Position numbers and translations under genes: made by a program. DNA of 64,000 nt from a virus: UHGV virus genome UHGV-0141727; one strand, written 5' to 3'. The notes below the pieces were generated by a model, which was not told where the DNA came from, ran no database searches, and worked only from the letters and a program-made list of their open reading frames with translations. Positions 589-58,960 of the stretch are shown piece by piece (within the stretch, counting starts at the first letter, position 1; each line of letters opens with the position of its first letter).

Positions 589-781
589 AACTTTCTCTTT
601 TCTCAAATAAATAACGCAAACCAATAATAACTAGTGTTATCATTAACTTAGCGCAACTTAACTTTTCTGTTAGATAATACATTGAATAAAGTTAAAGATG
701 AATGCCGTTTAATAATGTTTGGTGTAATAGAAATCACATTCTCAACATAGTTATTGCTCTTTTTTCATTCGGAGCATGATT

Positions 782-1267
782 ATGATCAATAATGAACCTC
801 GCTGGCTTATTGAAGCCCGTAAAAATATTGGAGTCACCGAAATAAAAGGAGCGAAACACAATCCTGAGATCGTCCAGTTCTGGCGGGATATTAAGCGCAG
901 CGGAATTAAAGACGACGAAACGCCGTGGTGCGCTGCATTTGTTGGTGCAATGCTGGAACGTGTAGGTATCCGCTCAACAAGATTTGAGTCGGCAAAATCC
1001 TATCTGGATTGGGGCGAGAAATTAGATACACCGGCATACGGATGTATCGTTGTATTTACTCGCGCAGGCGGTGGGCATGTAGGCTTTGTTGTCGGACGCC
1101 GCGCCAATGGCGATCTGCTTGTCTTGGGTGGGAACCAGGGGGATGCTGTTAATATTCGCGCATTCCCAACATCAAGAGTGTCTGGCTATCGCTGGCCTGC
1201 TGGCGAACCACGCAATACAGCTCTGTTACCAGTCGGAGACGCAGCAACCTCAACTAATGAGGCATAA
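782..1267 (+). CDS. cell-wall peptidase (CHAP/NlpC-P60-like Cys-His), probable endolysin-type hydrolase
   Basis: ORF 776..1267; WCAAFVG Cys and GGHVGFVV His motifs; GGAG 7 nt upstream of ATG 782. Confidence 0.5.
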   Translation: MINNEPRWLIEARKNIGVTEIKGAKHNPEIVQFWRDIKRSGIKDDETPWCAAFVGAMLERVGIRSTRFESAKSYLDWGEKLDTPAYGCIVVFTRAGGGHVGFVVGRRANGDLLVLGGNQGDAVNIRAFPTSRVSGYRWPAGEPRNTALLPVGDAATSTNEA

Positions 1268-1290
1268 AAAAGCCCCGGCCAGGCCGGGGC
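1265..1290 (-). terminator. GC-rich hairpin GCCCCGG/CCGGGGC followed by T-run on minus strand, downstream of ant fragment
   Basis: inverted repeat 1272-1290 with A6 on plus (T6 on minus). Confidence 0.5.
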
Positions 1291-1298
1291 ATCACACT

Positions 1299-2203
1299 TC
1301 AAGTTACGATCCAATCATTACCGACTGCATCCGCCGTCGATAAATCGACTTCCCGGATCTGGTATCCATTAATACAAAACCATCCAGTGGTAGAGCTATT
1401 ATCAGGCCAGACCCATACACCAACACTCCATGCTTTACGGCGGCACACTTCAGCCTGTCCTTCCCTGATTTTTTTTACCGCCTGCATGATGTCCATCACT
1501 CGCCTCCCCAACCGATTACCTGGAATTGCCCCATCCTTGGGTGATACCAGCGTTTTCCTCGGTGTTCAGCCTCCGACATCATCAGGGTAAAGGCATTCAT
1601 GAAGGGAGATAAGGCCACAATAGTACGACGCGACAATACCCCCTCTGGCGTCAAAAACTCATGCGTATCTGTGGGGATCCGGTAAGCGTTGACCAAGTTA
1701 CGGCATTTGGCTTCAGTCAGGCCGCATTTCGCCGCTAACTGGCGATAGCCAATGTAACCTTCCGGCATGTTGCCCTTCTTGATCTGCTCGACGGTTTCAG
1801 CGACCTGGCTAACCTTTGACTCAACAGCATGAAGCCGCTTTTGCTGCTGAACTGCATTCGCAGCCATTGCAGCGATCATCTCTATTTCGGTCAACGGCTG
1901 GCGTACTTGTTCTTCCAGTTCGCGCCAGCGGTCCACCAGCCGGGCGGTAAATTCGGGAGAAAGCTGCGCAACGACAATGATACTGTCACGCTTGCCTTGC
2001 TCGCCTTCGAAGAAATAGGCTTTTGTGTATTTATTAGGGCTAAGTGATTGATTATTCTCAACTGTAGCCAATGGCGTATGTTGGATAACTCCTTTAGCAA
2101 CAAGTCTTTCGATGCTGCGTTTAACATCAGAGTGACGACTTCCCACCAGTTCCGCGATCTCAATGCTGGTCATTGATGGCTTTTCGAGAATGCAGATATC
2201 CAT
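1299..2203 (-). pseudogene. Rha-family antirepressor (Ant-like) disrupted by frameshift
   Basis: ORFs 1496..2203 (Rha N-terminal domain, IAELVGSRH motif) and 1299..1511 overlap in different frames; together they align to the intact paralog 51286..52227. Confidence 0.55.
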
Positions 2204-2427
2204 CAGTGAGCCTCCGCAATGCCGGGATTGGTAATATTGCGATACCAGGGATTAGTGTTTGGTTGTGGGGAAGTAGAGAAACGACCAGTGAGAACGCCAT
2301 ACTGATCAGGGATCAGAGAACGGGCTTCTTTTTCAGTTGCGGCAATTGCGAAGTGATCACAATGTTTTTGCAGGGAGTGGAAACGCCAGATGAATTCTGG
2401 ACGTGAGCAAGGATTGGCATTAACCAT
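2203..2427 (-). CDS. icd: Icd-like host cell division inhibitor
   Basis: C-terminal part of ORF 2203..2751; internal ATG at 2427 with GAGG upstream; EFIWRFHSLQKH motif shared with paralog 52227..52442; directly precedes ant-like gene. Confidence 0.55.
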   Translation of the reverse strand: MVNANPCSRPEFIWRFHSLQKHCDHFAIAATEKEARSLIPDQYGVLTGRFSTSPQPNTNPWYRNITNPGIAEAH

Positions 2428-2583
2428 AGTTACGGCCTCATGTACAGGTTTAACAACCTGCAACCCGCTGCTAAACGGGTGGCAGGACGTGACGGGGTTA
2501 GCAGACTGGCGTACATGAAACCAGCAGGCCGAAGCCTCCCCATCACGCCCCACCATAATTTGGGCGTAACGTGGTTTACGGAC

Positions 2584-2614
2584 ACAAAAATACCGCAATA
2601 TCGGATATCTGCGG
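2584..2614 (-). terminator. hairpin plus T-tract on minus strand about 160 nt upstream of icd start
   Basis: CCGCA...TGCGG stem followed by TATTTTTGTG on minus strand; analogous element in copy 2 at 52625-52651. Confidence 0.3.
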
Positions 2615-2754
2615 TTGTCCGCATGTACATTCAGGCTGCTAAACCCGGTCGCAGAATTTGCTACGACGGCATGAATATAAGCCTGAACATTAGAAAGATC
2701 AACAGAATTTTTATCAGATGCTGTTTTTTTGTGACGATGTAAATCATACATTCC

Positions 2755-2787
2755 TGATTAGAAACATCAATTTAATTTTCTAACACA
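2755..2787. promoter_or_regulatory. operator-like inverted repeat ATTAGAAA-N12-TTTCTAAC upstream of immunity-like module 1
   Basis: member of recurring TGTTAGAAAA/TTTTCTAACA motif family seen at 7 sites. Confidence 0.4.
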
Positions 2788-2842: not shown

Positions 2843-3802
2843 TCATCCCCGAAAGCCCTCCGGAATTGACCAGTCTTCCCGGTCAAATTCAGACCGATAG
2901 CCACGCTGTTTCATCTGGTCAAATGCTTCATTGATGGTTGCACATCCCTGGGAACCAGAATAATCCATAGAGAAATCCAGGGCGCTGGATCGTTTGGGCT
3001 TATTCACCGTGGTAGCACTACGTATCCATGCAAATTTTTTTGCCAGTTTTTCAGCGGTACGATACAGAGCCTGCCGTTTTGCGTACCCCTCGTCTGAACG
3101 ACGCTTTGCAGCTCTCGCTTTTGCCGCCGCCAAACAGTGGTTGGTATGTTCTTCCCTGATTACTGTTTTTTTATCCAGCAAGCCATTATCCGCTTGAGAA
3201 CTATCTGCTGGTGAAGCCTTTGGCTGAACCGCGCATGATCTTTCTCTTCTTTTGGCTATAGAGTGACTCTTATTTTCTATTGGCTGTTCATTTTGAACAT
3301 GGGGGGACTTGTTCAATTTGAACAGGGGGTGCCCAGTTTCAAAAAAATAACGAACCTTTGAAATCAACTGCTTAACCAGTTTTGTGGCGTTGGCAAATTT
3401 GATGCCCTGCTTACTCCCTATCTCCATTGCTACATGAATGAAGTGGAGAAATTGTGTTGTAAACCGGTACACGTTACACACCTGAGCATTGTTATTCGCT
3501 ACCTGATGCTGCTTAACAAGCATTCCGCACTTCGTCGCTTCGGTAAATGCCCGGCGCACAGTAGAAATACTGCGTCCTGTAATCTCGGACATATCAGCAT
3601 ATGAGCGACGGATCATGTATTCATCGGTAGCTCCTGCCAGGTTGGCGAACTCGGCAATAATGGCGCTATGTGAAGGGGAAAGAAAACCGCTATGACGAGC
3701 AAAAAAACTCAACTGATGACCTTTGATTTTTTTGTGGTATTCAGTGTTGTTTTTATACTCAGAAGTGTTGAAAGTTACTGGAACTGAATTTAAAATACTC
3801 AT
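2843..3802 (-). CDS. winged-HTH DNA-binding protein (possible replication or regulatory protein)
   Basis: ORF; HTH-like segment SEITGRSISTVRRAFTEATKCGMLV; 9-bp inverted repeat GTATAAATC/GATTTATAC in its promoter region 3828-3856. Confidence 0.35.
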   Translation of the reverse strand: MSILNSVPVTFNTSEYKNNTEYHKKIKGHQLSFFARHSGFLSPSHSAIIAEFANLAGATDEYMIRRSYADMSEITGRSISTVRRAFTEATKCGMLVKQHQVANNNAQVCNVYRFTTQFLHFIHVAMEIGSKQGIKFANATKLVKQLISKVRYFFETGHPLFKLNKSPHVQNEQPIENKSHSIAKRRERSCAVQPKASPADSSQADNGLLDKKTVIREEHTNHCLAAAKARAAKRRSDEGYAKRQALYRTAEKLAKKFAWIRSATTVNKPKRSSALDFSMDYSGSQGCATINEAFDQMKQRGYRSEFDREDWSIPEGFRG

Positions 3803-3896: not shown

Positions 3897-4000
3897 GCAG
3901 TCGCTACCGGAGCAGTGACCGCGATCCTACTCGATCACGTGCCGTCGGATCAACAGTGTATAAAAACACACTGTGTTAGAAAATTAAGCTAGCTTTTAGC

Positions 4001-33926: not shown

Positions 33927-34036
33927 GGTTAAACCCTAAATTCGGGCGCGGCGTGAAGATTCTTTTGACGAGGTGACAATACTCACTTTGTTATTTAGTC
34001 AATAGCATTAGAAAAATAATTTTCGTTAACAATCTT

Positions 34037-34084
34037 GTGTTAGTATGGTTTAATCTTAATTTTCTAACATAAAACATTAGAACA
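34037..34084. promoter_or_regulatory. operator-like site with TGTTAG/TTTTCTAACA/CATTAGAACA half-sites
   Basis: recurring motif family, directly upstream of plus-strand gene 34085. Confidence 0.4.
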
Positions 34085-42123: not shown

Positions 42124-42165
42124 AAACTGTGTTAGAAAATAAAACTCAATTATCTAACACAGTTT
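42124..42165. promoter_or_regulatory. perfect 13-bp inverted repeat AAACTGTGTTAGA/TCTAACACAGTTT operator-like site upstream of rdgC operon
   Basis: member of TGTTAGAA motif family. Confidence 0.45.
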
Positions 42166-46080: not shown

Positions 46081-46082
46081 CA

Positions 46083-46104
46083 AAGCCCACCTTAAGGTGG
46101 GCTT
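46083..46104. terminator. hairpin AAGCCCACC/GGTGGGCTT directly after 45541..46080
   Basis: 9-bp stem; T-tract on minus side. Confidence 0.45.
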
Positions 46105-46305
46105 CGCCAGAAATTATTTTCTGGTATTCAGAACGCCATTACCGGACTTTGCCTTGACCAAGTATCACAACTGGTTTGACCTGTTATGATAGCTGGTTGC
46201 GGGATGTCTGAATTTCTTCAGTCTGCTGCATCCTCGAAGGTTTGGTTCAACATGTACCATTCCTTCACCGTCATAATAGTGTACTATTCACGTCCTTGCA
46301 AACAC

Positions 46306-51285: not shown

Positions 51286-52227
51286 TTAACTAATAATCCA
51301 GTCGGTTGCTGCTACATCTTCTGGCTGCAAATCAATCGCACAGATCTTACCGTCGCGAATGGTGCGCCAGTTTTTCCGTGAGCCTCTTTCGGGCCATACC
51401 CAGACACTTTCAGGCCAGGATGCTCGACGGCATACGGTTGCATACCCTGTTTTAATCTTCTCTCTGGCGGTATGCAACGACAGGTTTGCCTTTGGACTTT
51501 CAGGCACAGGATGGTGAATGGCCTGAAATAGCCCCATCTTGGGATGATACCAGCGTTTGTTACGTGGTTCTGCCTCCGACATAACCTGCTTAAAGGCTTT
51601 CCGGAAGGGGGCCAGGGCCACAATGGAACGTCGCGCAAGCAAACCGTCGGGAGTTAAAAACTCATGCGTATCAGTGGGTATCCGGTAAGCGTTGACCAGG
51701 TTACGGCATTTGGCTTCAGTCAGGCCACATTTCGCCGCCAACTGGCGGTAGCCAATGTAGCCTTCCGGAATATTGCCTTTCTTGATCTGCTCGACGGTTT
51801 CAGCGACTTTGGACACTTGTGCCGATACTTCGGCTACCTGGGCATTAACGGCGTTGATCCGGCGTTCATGCTCAAGATGCATTTGCGCCATTTCAGCCAG
51901 AATTTCGGCTTTTGATTTTAACTGTGCCCGGGCATTCTCCAGTTCGCGCCAGCGGTCCACCAGCCGGGCGGTGAATTCGGGAGAGAGCTGCGCGACGACA
52001 ATAATGCTGTCTCGTTTGCCTTGCTCGCCTTCAAAGACATAGACCGGATCTTTGACAACCTTCCCTAAGTTATTGATTCTTTCGACGAACTCATTTTGAG
52101 TTTCTCGGATGACACCGCTCGCCATCATATTGCGAATGGTACGTAAAACGTTGCCATGACGACTACCAACTAACTCTGCAATATCCAGGCTATTCATTGT
52201 AGCTTTTTGGGTGATAGACAGATTCAT
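51286..52227 (-). CDS. Rha-family antirepressor (Ant-like), intact copy
   Basis: 313-aa ORF with Rha N-terminal motif; paralog of frameshifted 1299..2203. Confidence 0.65.
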   Translation of the reverse strand: MNLSITQKATMNSLDIAELVGSRHGNVLRTIRNMMASGVIRETQNEFVERINNLGKVVKDPVYVFEGEQGKRDSIIVVAQLSPEFTARLVDRWRELENARAQLKSKAEILAEMAQMHLEHERRINAVNAQVAEVSAQVSKVAETVEQIKKGNIPEGYIGYRQLAAKCGLTEAKCRNLVNAYRIPTDTHEFLTPDGLLARRSIVALAPFRKAFKQVMSEAEPRNKRWYHPKMGLFQAIHHPVPESPKANLSLHTAREKIKTGYATVCRRASWPESVWVWPERGSRKNWRTIRDGKICAIDLQPEDVAATDWIIS

Positions 52228-52442
52228 CAGTGCACCTCCACGCAGTTCATTGGTAGATTCCAGTAATTGAGGATCTCCATCGCATCAAGAGTGAAGCGTG
52301 CGGCAAAAATGCAGGGTTCTTCGGGAAGGTATGAGCGCGCCTCTGCTTCGGTAGCAGCCATTACGCAGATATAGAGGTGTTTTTGGCAGGAATAGAAACG
52401 CCAGATAAATTCAGAATGAGTTGGGGTAGGGATAGTAGCCAT
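52227..52442 (-). CDS. icd: Icd-like host cell division inhibitor
   Basis: 71-aa ORF, AAGGAGG RBS, EFIWRFYSCQKH motif; precedes ant. Confidence 0.6.
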   Translation of the reverse strand: MATIPTPTHSEFIWRFYSCQKHLYICVMAATEAEARSYLPEEPCIFAARFTLDAMEILNYWNLPMNCVEVH

Positions 52443-52459
52443 ATTGGCAGCCTCCTTTG

Positions 52460-52620
52460 ACTAAGTTAAGGAGCTACCGCGTGAGGTTCCAATCTCAATG
52501 GCGGTAGCACTGACTGGGTTGGAACTACCGGCGTCAAAGGGAACCGGCCTGCCTTTCGGCAGCCCAGCCAGCACTACCATTGATCTCTGAGCTAAACGCT
52601 ACGTATGGCTGTGCGATGGC
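52460..52620 (-). ncRNA. candidate c4-like antisense/leader RNA region upstream of icd (inference only)
   Basis: ORF-free structured region between a terminator and icd; position analogous to P1 c4. Confidence 0.2.
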
Positions 52621-52624
52621 ATGA

Positions 52625-52651
52625 CACAAAAAAAGACGCTTTCGGCGTCTG
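52625..52651 (-). terminator. intrinsic terminator AGACGC/GCGTCT plus T7 on minus strand
   Basis: hairpin immediately followed by TTTTTTTGTG. Confidence 0.55.
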
Positions 52652-52755
52652 TGTCGCCTTTGACATTATCCGGGGTTCCAATCCCGGCACCCGTTTTTCT
52701 AAGGTGCCGTAGAAATATACCCCACGATAATGCCAGGGCGCAACTGTGTGTTTTC

Positions 52756-52923: not shown

Positions 52924-53254
52924 TTTGACACCCCCAGCGCGAGTAAAGAATGCAGATTATCGCGTGAGTGGCGGACAACGAGTGATGGGAAAAGACAGTA
53001 GCTGTTCATAGTGTAGTGACTCCTTGCTTTTGGAGCCGCCATCGACTGTTCCACGGTCTGGTGGCGGCGCAATAAAGGTTGGAACACCGTGAGTCAACGG
53101 GGGCTTTTCAGCCACCTATATTGCACCGCCATTGGTATGGCGGCGGCAATCATACGAAAAACCAAACGGTTTGTCTCAAAAAGTTGACCGGTGTACCAAT
53201 CGGTTGTGAATGTACAACGGTGAATTTCACAATTCAACTTAAAATGTTAGAAAA

Positions 53255-53830
53255 CTAATTTATTAATTCAGTCACCATCTGATACAACGTCATTTCATCG
53301 GCATTGTGCCGCCTGAAATCTGCTTTGCCGCCTATTTTTCCATCAGCATGAACAGGGACCAACCAGGGGTATTGCTCGCGTATCTCTGCTGGCGCTGCGT
53401 GTTGATGGTGCCATTTACACAAAGGGAGAACGTATTTATGCGCGTTCTCTGCCGTTCTCCCGAAGATGTGGTGCAGGGATACCACAGGGCTATGCTGTCC
53501 GTGCATATGGCAGGCAATGCAGGGGAGAGCACCGATGGCAGTTTGTATCCGGCGCTCATCTGCTGTGAGCGTTCTGCCTTTCAGGCCACGTGACGTGCGC
53601 GTTTTTTTGACTGGAGCAGAAGCGGCCTTCTCTTTTCTTCGCTGTTCATATTGCTTCGCTTTTTCAATTTTCTTTTGCCGATATTCAGGCGATGCAGCCT
53701 TTTCTCGCGCACGCTGCTGCTGGCGTTGAGCTTGCTGAAGACGCTTTGCCCTTTGTTCCTCCCGCCATTTCGGATCAGCCAGTTTTTTCAGGGCTTTTTG
53801 CGTCTGTTTCTCCCAATAGCTTTGCTTCAT
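53255..53830 (-). CDS. Ref-like HNH-type nuclease (P1 recombination enhancement function-like)
   Basis: ORF 53255..53872; Lys/Arg/Gln-rich N-terminus, C-terminal Cys/His cluster CIACHMHG...HHIFG...PLCKWHH. Confidence 0.45.
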   Translation of the reverse strand: MKQSYWEKQTQKALKKLADPKWREEQRAKRLQQAQRQQQRAREKAASPEYRQKKIEKAKQYEQRRKEKAASAPVKKTRTSRGLKGRTLTADERRIQTAIGALPCIACHMHGQHSPVVSLHHIFGRTAENAHKYVLPLCKWHHQHAAPAEIREQYPWLVPVHADGKIGGKADFRRHNADEMTLYQMVTELIN

Positions 53831-53872: not shown

Positions 53873-53911
53873 ATGTGTTAGAAAATCAAAATTGATTTTC
53901 TAACACAAAAT
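53873..53911. promoter_or_regulatory. near-perfect 34-bp palindrome TGTGTTAGAAAATCAA AA TTGATTTTCTAACACA in divergent promoter region
   Basis: strongest member of the recurring operator-like motif family. Confidence 0.5.
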
Positions 53912-56380: not shown

Positions 56381-56704
56381 ATGACCACATCGCATTCTGC
56401 AATCACCCAGGAAAAAGTATTTCGCTTGCTCGAACGTCTGGAGGCGCTCGCCACGGAGGAGGATATATCCCCGGAGATGCTGGTCGAGTGCAGCCGTGTG
56501 ATATTGCGTCGCAAGAACGACATCGCGCGGCTGACATCCGGCGCACCATCCGTATCAGCCAGTCCAACGCTTTATTGCAGCTTCTGCAACAAATCCCAGC
56601 ACACCGTTAAAAAGTTAATTGCCGGTGACAACGTTTTCATCTGCAACGAGTGCGTGAAAGATTGCAACAACATTATCCAGGAAGAGCAAAGGGAATCAGC
56701 ATGA
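56381..56704 (+). CDS. protein with ClpX-type C4 zinc-finger domain
   Basis: ORF 56300..56704; ATG 56381 with GGAG RBS; [36 protein letters not shown] matches the ClpX N-terminal zinc-binding domain as recalled from memory. Confidence 0.55.
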
Positions 56705-58925: not shown

Positions 58926-58960
58926 GATGTTAGAATATTGATTTTAATTTTCTAACAGAT
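58926..58960. promoter_or_regulatory. operator-like inverted repeat TGTTAGAA-N14-TTCTAACA upstream of 59000 gene
   Basis: member of recurring motif family. Confidence 0.4.

Follow-up and report, generated by a model that had tools for sequence, protein, structure and literature searches.

The viral genome UHGV-0141727, of which a stretch of 64,000 nucleotides was analysed on one strand (the window, to which all positions refer), contains two open reading frames (ORFs) on the minus strand, 1496..2203 (235 aa) and 1299..1511 (70 aa when read from a TTG), that overlap by 16 nt in different frames and together resemble one continuous antirepressor gene at 51286..52227. This raises the question whether the antirepressor gene ant of a decaying second immunity module has been split by a frameshift or by a sequencing indel, as the original prediction had proposed, or whether the two frames represent two genes. 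We consider it likely that the region represents an intact and functional secondary immunity operon of the P1 immI type, carried by a D6-like phage-plasmid. The module, termed copy 1 in the following, is a D6-type immI operon, which combines the leader, the C4 antisense RNA and the icd gene of the P1 type with a non-P1 antirepressor of the Rha/Roi type and a small coupled gene. The earlier finding is therefore largely ordinary, as the operon is intact and the supposed frameshift corresponds to a conserved gene boundary.

The small gene, which corresponds to orf17 of Escherichia phage D6 and encodes 65 aa, extends on the minus strand over 1299..1496, with an ATG at 1496-1494 and a stop codon at 1301-1299. 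The stop codon of ant (1498-1496) overlaps this ATG in the sequence TGATG, and a GGAGG motif is located 4 nt before it (GGGGAGGCGAGTGATGG). This arrangement repeats the design of the icd/ant junction (GGAGGCTCACTGATGG), where the icd stop codon likewise overlaps the ant start codon as TGATG at position 2203. Moreover, the ant/orf17 junction GGGGAGGnGAGTGATGG is identical in 24/24 aligned loci. In 17 of the 24 loci a TGA is present in the orf17 frame two codons upstream of the ATG; the general start is therefore the ATG at 1496 and not the TTG at 1511.

In line with these signals, the two-gene layout is annotated elsewhere. In D6, the region comprising orf17, orf18 and orf19 (MF356679, 19789-20917) consists of separate genes of 198, 708 and 225 nt with 1-nt overlaps, and gene order, gene lengths and overlaps equal those in the window. 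Likewise, the three genes are separate, with the same lengths and 1-nt overlaps, in RefSeq plasmids of E. coli and E. marmotae, so that a separate orf17 is already known; what we add is modest, namely the C4 specificity within a D6-like backbone, a combinatorial survey of the a and b alleles of C4, and the assignment of a Tad2-like fold. Using tblastn, at least 80% of orf17 was covered in 121 of 122 plasmid matches, 110 of which show at least 80% amino-acid identity, and among the IMG/VR loci of the copy-1 type orf17 is an intact stand-alone ORF in 20 of 21.

These data bear directly on the idea that an indel near 1490-1515, introduced by sequencing or assembly, has split a continuous ant gene. 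In favour of it stands the overlap itself and nothing else; an A/T run is present nearby (1469-1476), but it is located inside orf17 and not at the junction. As D6, more than 100 plasmids from independent assemblies and 20 IMG/VR contigs show the same junction and the same ORFs, we regard this explanation as having practically no chance of being correct. In addition, when both copies are aligned, the linker shows two gaps, of 10 and 6 nt (16 nt in total), rather than a single-base indel. A frameshifted pseudogene was taken to be marked by a private or sporadic split and by a downstream part that lacks translation signals of its own; instead, the split is present in all examined loci of this type, and GGAGG plus an ATG are located at the domain boundary. 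Judged from these comparisons, a sequencing error and a recent frameshift are both excluded, and what remains would be a stable gene fission (or, from the side of the paralog, a fusion) at the domain linker, equipped with coupling signals. Annotations of D6-like phage-plasmids should consequently keep the small downstream gene, and this ant gene should not be termed a pseudogene.

The resemblance of both ORFs to the paralog, on which the suspicion of a split gene was based, is nevertheless genuine. The paralogous module (copy 2; 51286..52707, minus strand) encodes an Ant protein of 313 aa, to which the orf17-like domain is fused (52227-51286). The 235-aa Ant of copy 1 aligns to residues 1-237 of this protein (63% identity, E 8e-108), and the orf17 product to residues 249-313 (38% identity, E 1e-15). 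Within PHROG 63, a family of 431 positions, the 235-aa Ant covers positions 127-358 and the 313-aa paralog positions 124-431, indicating that the fused form is common in this family. Alone, orf17 matches the end of PHROG 63 weakly (382-430, E 0.003) and its own 65-position family PHROG 7385 with an E-value of 3.7e-47. The occurrence of the same domain fused to Ant in one paralog and as a coupled separate gene in the other predicts a two-part antirepressor.

The ant gene of copy 1 (1496..2203, minus strand; orf18 in D6) encodes a Rha/Roi-type antirepressor, as indicated by matches to Pfam Phage_pRha (E 3.3e-8) and to PHROG 63 'anti-repressor Ant' (E 1.5e-46). Among the 120 best listed homologs 118 have a length of 235 aa, and the Ant protein of copy 1 is complete and not truncated. 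The ratio of nonsynonymous to synonymous differences per site (pN/pS) ranges from 0.08 to 0.28 in ant. Searching by sequence, we found no solved structures related to Ant. The P1 protein Ant1 matches PF03374 (KilAC, E 1.2e-30), and the Ant1/2 proteins of P1 are unrelated to the Rha/Roi-type Ant and the separate 65-aa gene of the window, the Ant of which is not of the Ant1/Ant2 type (KilAC/ANT domain, two in-frame starts). P1 Ant was also considered as a relative of orf17 and rejected, since the two show no similarity. Within ant, the stretch 2031-2130 (residues ~25-58) is hypervariable among D6-like loci, with a nucleotide diversity of 0.35 compared to 0.01-0.08 nearby, and contains a compensated indel at 2054 and 2035.

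The gene preceding ant was predicted to be Icd-like, and this assignment is borne out: icd (2203..2427, minus strand, ATG at 2427) encodes a 74-aa Icd-like cell-division inhibitor that matches PHROG 1426 (E 5.7e-39), shares 45% identity with the Icd of copy 2 and bears the annotation icd in D6 as well as in plasmids. According to the P1 annotation, icd is apparently needed for the expression of ant. The frame of icd continues upstream to form a long ORF, 2203..2751 (182 aa), which had been suspected to comprise leader plus icd instead of one protein. In agreement with this suspicion, C4 and the a1/b1 targets are located inside it; moreover, 110 open codons precede the icd ATG in this frame only in the window and in one relative, compared to 11-14 codons in 17/24 loci. 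Judged from these frames, the long ORF is spurious.

The leader that precedes icd contains all elements of a C4 switch. The upstream C4 targets are located in the region 2622..2680 (minus strand), which matches the Rfam family c4-a1b1 (RF03163) at 2628-2680 with 53.9 bits (threshold 46.7). The C4 antisense RNA itself (2475..2560, minus strand) matches RF01695 over the full model (1-87) with 71.7 bits, compared to a gathering threshold of 45, and thus shows the C4 fold. Both the C4 RNA and the a1/b1 motif were found by means of Rfam and had not been named in the original prediction. Alignment to the annotated immI region of P1 places a1, b1, c4, a2, b2 and both promoters. Accordingly, the minus strand carries a1 (TTAGCAG) at 2642-2636, b1 (TGTACATG) at 2629-2622, the C4 loops b' (CATGTAC(g)) at 2517-2510 and a' (CTGCTAA) at 2504-2498, and the downstream targets (2436..2474) a2 (TTAGCAG) at 2474-2468 and b2 (TGTACATG) at 2446-2439, the latter overlapping the Shine-Dalgarno sequence of icd (GAGG, 2439-2436). 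The targets a1 and b1 are exact complements of the C4 loops, and the 7-nt complements of a' and b' are each exact and each present twice, upstream and downstream of C4. The second immunity module supposed by the original prediction is thus P1-immI-like and carries a C4 RNA, icd and an antirepressor. Its description as decaying, however, does not hold, as the regulatory parts are all intact and mutually matched, and nothing in copy 1 looks decayed.

In addition, the leader contains a stem-loop (2577..2621, minus strand), which consists of an inner hairpin (2614-2593), a U-run (2592-2584) and an outer helix (GCGGACA/UGUCCGU). The terminator-like hairpin described earlier at 2584-2614 is therefore real and folds as predicted, but it is nested in the outer helix. 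The fold of the 94-nt leader has a z-score of -3.45. Since the stem-loop is near-identical in P1 and D6, covariation gives no information on it. In copy 2, the terminator of IsrK takes the place of this hairpin between a1/b1 and C4. By analogy, the hairpin of copy 1 may give rise to a short a1/b1 RNA.

The C4 loops co-vary with the four target sites. The match between loops and targets is exact in the window, P1, P7 and D6, and each locus harbors exactly two copies of each target, although each set of sequences is different. The alleles are a = TTGACAG and b = GTTAGTG in P1, a = TTAGCAG and b = GATTGTG in P7, and a = TTGACAG and b = ACTTACG in D6. Copy 1 of the window combines a = TTAGCAG, as in P7, with b = GTACATG, which is unlike the b alleles of P1 and P7. 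Its C4 specificity is hence also unlike that of D6, and its a/b combination differs from those of P1, P7, D6 and copy 2. A survey of 75 distinct IMG/VR loci that carry a C4 of the P1 type yielded 2 a alleles, at least 10 b alleles and 15 combinations. Full flanks were available for 67 of these loci, and in 66 of them the loops fit all four targets exactly. One IMG/VR locus, with b' CCTTTTC, carries targets that do not match the loops. The combination present in the window occurs in 6 IMG/VR contigs, representing 4 distinct loci after de-duplication, and is thus rare but not unique. The P1-type C4 cassettes of the IMG/VR loci L058-L140 precede both P1-type and Rha-type antirepressors.

The two modules of the window differ accordingly in their specificity. 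Copy 2 begins with an IsrK-type leader (52707-52629; Rfam IsrK, 62.7 bits) located 45 nt upstream of its C4 (52584-52497), which was likewise identified by Rfam and is followed by icd (52442-52227) and the fused ant, all on the minus strand. Its targets, a = TTGGAAC and b = GTCAAAGG, are each present upstream and downstream of C4, and the loop complements are present as well. The upstream copies a1 (TTGGAAC at 52681) and b1 (GTCAAAGG at 52664) are located inside the IsrK match, and from this sequence arrangement IsrK seems to represent the a1/b1-bearing leader of a module of the C4 type. The cognate loop-target duplexes have calculated energies of -28.9 and -29.3 kcal/mol, compared to -11.3 (copy-2 leader) and -15.5 for the cross-copy duplexes. 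The cognate duplexes being far stronger, copy 1 and copy 2 should not cross-react. D6-like elements would then harbor two C4 modules that do not cross-react with each other, and the alleles of the P1-type cassette would constitute a natural set of orthogonal antisense switches.

Upstream of the leader, the operator-like repeat noted earlier at 2755-2787 is present in the form of a bipartite site (2757..2784, strand not assigned), which consists of an exact copy of the 13-mer GTTAGAAAATTAA on the minus strand (2784-2772) and a degenerate inverted partner (2757-2769) at an offset of 15 nt. Within the window, GTTAGAAAATTAA occurs 12 times when up to 2 mismatches are allowed, compared to 1.85 expected occurrences, and none of 100 shuffled sequences reached this number. 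Inverted pairs with the same 15-nt offset are present at 42131/42146, 53877/53892 and 58929/58944, and an exact copy is located upstream of repL at 3975-3987. The core of the operator is kept in 24/24 related loci and is common to D6 and the window. Further copies resembling GTTAGAAAATTAA are found at 34007-34068, 42131-42158, 53246-53258, 53877-53904, 56606-56618 and 58929-58956, three of them around the region upstream of copy 2. This pattern is like that of the dispersed C1 operators of P1, and by its sequence the site would presumably bind the C1-like repressor of the element. The ORF lists revealed no obvious gene for a C1-like repressor beside the paired sites at 42.1 kb and 58.9 kb.

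Two promoter-like sites are present on the minus strand. The upstream site (2743..2770, TTGATG-16-TATGAT, 9/12 matches to the consensus) overlaps the operator, and its geometry in comparison to the P1 annotation makes it the counterpart of P51a/P2c4. The downstream site (2674..2702, TTGATC-17-TATATT) aligns with the annotated -35 and -10 elements of P1c4 and is the counterpart of P51b/P1c4. Also the position of the operator relative to the promoter matches that of Op51 and P51a in P1, as the site abuts the -35 element of the upstream promoter. At the other end, the operon is closed by an intrinsic terminator (1272..1290, minus strand; 8 G-C pairs followed by TTTTTTAT) 9 nt past the orf17 stop codon. 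This strong terminator is thus placed after orf17 and not after ant.

Taken together, the order of the elements is the same as in the immI regions of P1 and P7 (Op51, P51a/b, a1 b1, c4, a2 b2, icd, ant1/ant2), including the position of b2 over the ribosome-binding site of icd. A second known system is isrK-orf45-anrP of Gifsy-1 (IsrK sRNA, STnc1160), for which coupling between the icd-like orf45 and the antirepressor AnrP has been reported (PMC4825925). There, the short IsrK leader RNA, which ends at the terminator, acts in trans on the read-through mRNA and thereby turns on translation of the small ORF and, via the coupling, of AnrP; this coupling has been shown experimentally (PMC4825925). 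Gifsy-1 is of the type of copy 2, with IsrK followed by C4, an icd-like gene and ant. Copy 1 likewise contains a hairpin with a U-run between a1/b1 and C4, as in copy 2; however, its leader is of the P1 type and not of the IsrK type.

By homology with P1, P7 and IsrK of Gifsy-1, copy 1 would work as follows. Transcription would start at the two tandem promoters, the upstream one being overlapped by the dispersed operator. The resulting leader would hold a1/b1, the stem-loop with its U-run and the C4 RNA, which would be cut out of the leader and repress icd and ant. To this end, the loops a' and b' of C4 would pair with a2 and b2, and as b2 covers the ribosome-binding site of icd, its translation would be blocked. 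Since the genes are presumably translationally coupled, this block would also stop the expression of the genes behind icd. Upon outcompetition of C4, icd, ant and orf17 would be translated as a chain, each junction providing a GGAGG, a short spacer and a TGATG. The antirepressor activity of Ant, too, is assigned by homology. As to orf17, its most likely role is that of a detachable subunit working with Ant, since the paralogous Ant carries the same domain at its C-terminus.

The assignment to the D6-like phage-plasmids follows from comparisons of the entire region. Positions 1250-2850 share 89.6% nucleotide identity with Escherichia phage D6 over 98% of the length. In a plasmid collection, 577 records match this segment, 109 of which cover at least 80% of the query, and the best identity is 94.4%. 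Taken as a whole, these matches identify the window, by its sequence, as a D6-like phage-plasmid. The leader-C4-icd part alone (2316-2702) resembles P1, P7 and their relatives with 87-89% DNA identity. The upstream neighbor of the module is a repL-like lytic replication gene (2843..3802, minus strand, thus on the same strand), and the downstream neighbor, on the strand opposite to the operon, is a gene encoding a CHAP/TIGR02594 peptidoglycan hydrolase (776..1267). In D6, repL upstream and the peptidoglycan hydrolase downstream flank the module as in the window. In contrast, P1 harbors kilA-repL downstream of the module, and also the operator sequence differs. That D6-like plasmids contain a second c4/icd region has been reported previously (PMC6799933).

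Several observations weigh against an intact and functional operon. First, in one IMG/VR locus (L026, 2537562191_000026) a 1-nt deletion near codon 9 of orf17 results in a frameshifted protein (P0003); it may represent either a real loss or a sequencing error. Second, the promoters and the operator are consensus or motif matches only. Third, the Ant of the window is not of the P1 type (KilAC), and its target and activity are read from family names only. A further point concerns the substitution pattern of orf17, which was analyzed in 22 distinct loci. Here, pS and pN amount to 0.057 and 0.036 for orf17, to 0.139 and 0.007 for icd, to 0.220 and 0.017 for the 3' part of ant, and to 0.137 and 0.017 for the hydrolase gene, so that a pN/pS of 0.64 for orf17 contrasts with values of 0.05, 0.08 and 0.12, respectively, for the other three. 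The 37 events in orf17 comprise 25 nonsynonymous and 12 synonymous changes, which is not below random placement (permutation P = 0.32), and the variable sites are spread evenly over the codon positions. In view of this flat pattern, in which no clear constraint on the amino-acid sequence is visible, orf17 could be silent or weakly selected. Our attempt to prove by dN/dS that orf17 is coding did not succeed, given the pN/pS of 0.64 and P = 0.32.

The same data are therefore compatible with an old frameshift that became fixed in the D6-like lineage, severed the C-terminal domain from Ant and left orf17 as an untranslated or functionless remnant, which has not yet accrued stop codons. Besides the ratio of nonsynonymous to synonymous changes, which does not differ from random placement, and the flat codon positions, this explanation would account for the orf17 frame being open for 23 codons upstream in the window and in 6/23 relatives, such that one indel could re-fuse it, and for the fused domain in PHROG 63, suggesting that the fusion is older. 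On the other hand, the ATG is located at the first helix of the domain, preceded by GGAGG and embedded in TGATG, and this arrangement, which duplicates the icd/ant design, is kept in 24/24 loci; the linker of copy 2 differs by the two gaps described above and not by one base; and free-standing homologs are present elsewhere, while the terminator follows orf17. Moreover, the orf17 DNA has diverged ~3-fold less than flanking synonymous sites (~0.04 in total, compared to a pS of 0.14-0.22), which is not the signature of neutral decay, and none of the 37 events created a stop codon (P = 0.053). The constraint on orf17 is consequently not codon-specific. Possible causes of the pattern include a small sample, the recent spread of the segment, a constraint at the RNA level, and diversifying selection; with regard to RNA structure as a cause of the unusually low synonymous divergence, the fold z-scores of orf17 (-1.8 and -2.6, terminator included) are not decisive. 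Because the pattern is unexplained, we retain the functionless remnant as an explanation that is unlikely but has to be taken seriously.

The overlap of ant and orf17 could also serve programmed ribosomal frameshifting, which would yield a fused Ant-Orf17 protein besides Ant, like the two forms of Ant in P1. The Shine-Dalgarno-like sequence GGGGAGG just before the stop codon, as in the prfB and dnaX sites, would fit this idea, and, as the paralog demonstrates, a fusion of the two parts is viable. However, the overlap lacks a slippery heptamer, orf17 occupies the -1 frame, in contrast to the +1 shift given by the prfB-type geometry, and the TGA in the orf17 frame two codons before the ATG (17/24) leaves ~4 nt for the shift. 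We therefore rejected programmed frameshifting on sequence grounds as highly improbable, and favor two translationally coupled genes.

This leaves the question of what the orf17 product might be. The window's orf17 contains 11/11 family-invariant residues. AlphaFold predicts one helix and four strands, followed by a short helix and a final strand, with a predicted local distance difference test score (pLDDT) of 77 (72 in a second run with 6 sequences), and the ten best matches of this model in a Foldseek search of the PDB are all Tad2 (top probability 0.96, E 0.1, template modeling score ~0.5). The Pfam family Tad2-like (PF11195) matches 5/6 family members below threshold (E up to 1; best E 6.2e-5), orf17 scoring 16.7 bits and the best relative, P0005, reaching 23.9 bits, compared to a cut-off of 25. 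A word-indexed protein search with orf17 returned only 3 clusters, and HMMER with a 3-sequence profile only 7 matches among 1.84 billion representatives; the subfamily is therefore small at the sequence level, and no deep alignment is possible. As a profile search of PDB sequences with the orf17 family did not find Tad2, the fold comparison and the sub-threshold Pfam matches are the sole link between the families.

For a direct comparison, the sequence of SPO1 Tad2 (gp34.65) was recovered from the phage record via published residue numbers. In hhalign, the orf17 family aligned with it end to end over 62 columns (E 0.0011, probability 20%). In this low-confidence alignment, W25 and D79 of Tad2 pair with the invariant W23 and D56, N26 pairs with S or P, and W73 with V, I, Y or F; in the window's orf17, N26 is replaced by S and W73 by V. 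The Tad2/DUF2829 proteins (SPO1 gp34.65, ModTad2, AcrIIA7) and orf17 share the predicted topology, consisting of helix alpha1, an antiparallel sheet beta1-beta5 and a short helix before beta5, as well as a C-terminal D..DW motif and a W after strand 1. They differ in length (89 aa for SPO1 Tad2, 65 aa for orf17), and in relatives of orf17 the domain is fused to an antirepressor. In comparison to Tad2, ~20 residues are absent in orf17, including the insert between beta2 and beta3 with helix alpha2, which builds the dimer in Tad2. Judged from the models, orf17 probably adopts a minimal fold of the Tad2/DUF2829 type, whereas the binding of ligands in the manner of Tad2 is unproven and somewhat unlikely. 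Among the papers that a literature search on antirepressors listed, none contained DUF2829.

The fold raises the possibility that Orf17 is a Tad2-type anti-defence sponge for TIR-derived signalling nucleotides, which would be co-expressed with Ant early after infection or induction and act independently of the antirepressor function. The Foldseek and Pfam matches, the full-length alignment to SPO1 Tad2 and the pairing of the contact residues W25 and D79 with invariant positions are in favor of a sponge; in contrast, all sequence scores remain under the Pfam threshold, the hhalign probability is low, the dimer helix is absent, two residues are replaced, and the domain being fused to Ant, both in the paralog and in PHROG 63, indicates a function as part of the antirepressor. 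We thus regard an independent sponge as improbable. A broader variant, which we hold to be just as doubtful, assumes that Orf17 and the C-terminal domain of the paralogous Ant are a working, small-molecule-binding Tad2-like module under C4 control, either as a minimal sponge for TIR or cGAS signals or as a sensor that couples such signals to antirepressor activity and to the escape of the plasmid-prophage. If the domain did bind a nucleotide signal, the control of prophage immunity would be linked to the signalling of host defence. At present, a subunit of the antirepressor is the role that we favor for Orf17.

Free-standing relatives of orf17 are encoded on two other contigs of ~90 kb (L053 and L054; 88 and 91 kb), where genes for proteins of 96 aa (P0005) and 68 aa (P0006), respectively, have no adjacent ant. 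These contigs also carry ParM/StbA partition genes, a gene for a Big_2 protein, a DNA methylase gene and phage-like genes, and probably belong to a different phage-plasmid group.

The two ant copies of the window are 80-95% identical at the DNA level in the segments 1656-1805 (compared to 51659-51808) and 1935-2024 (compared to 51959-52048), on a background of 40-60%. Moreover, two public proteins of 306 aa (P0024 and P0027) consist of an N-terminal part of the copy-1 type and a C-terminal part of the copy-2 type with the fused domain. This mosaic suggests that the two immunity modules have undergone gene conversion or recombination with each other. In the IMG/VR loci of the copy-2 type L040-L044, the frame with the fused domain comprises only 122-181 codons, and there, unlike in copy 1, ant appears to be truly interrupted. 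Finally, distant from both immunity modules, Rfam identified a match to sroH on the minus strand at 46082-46267 with 113 bits (threshold 80).

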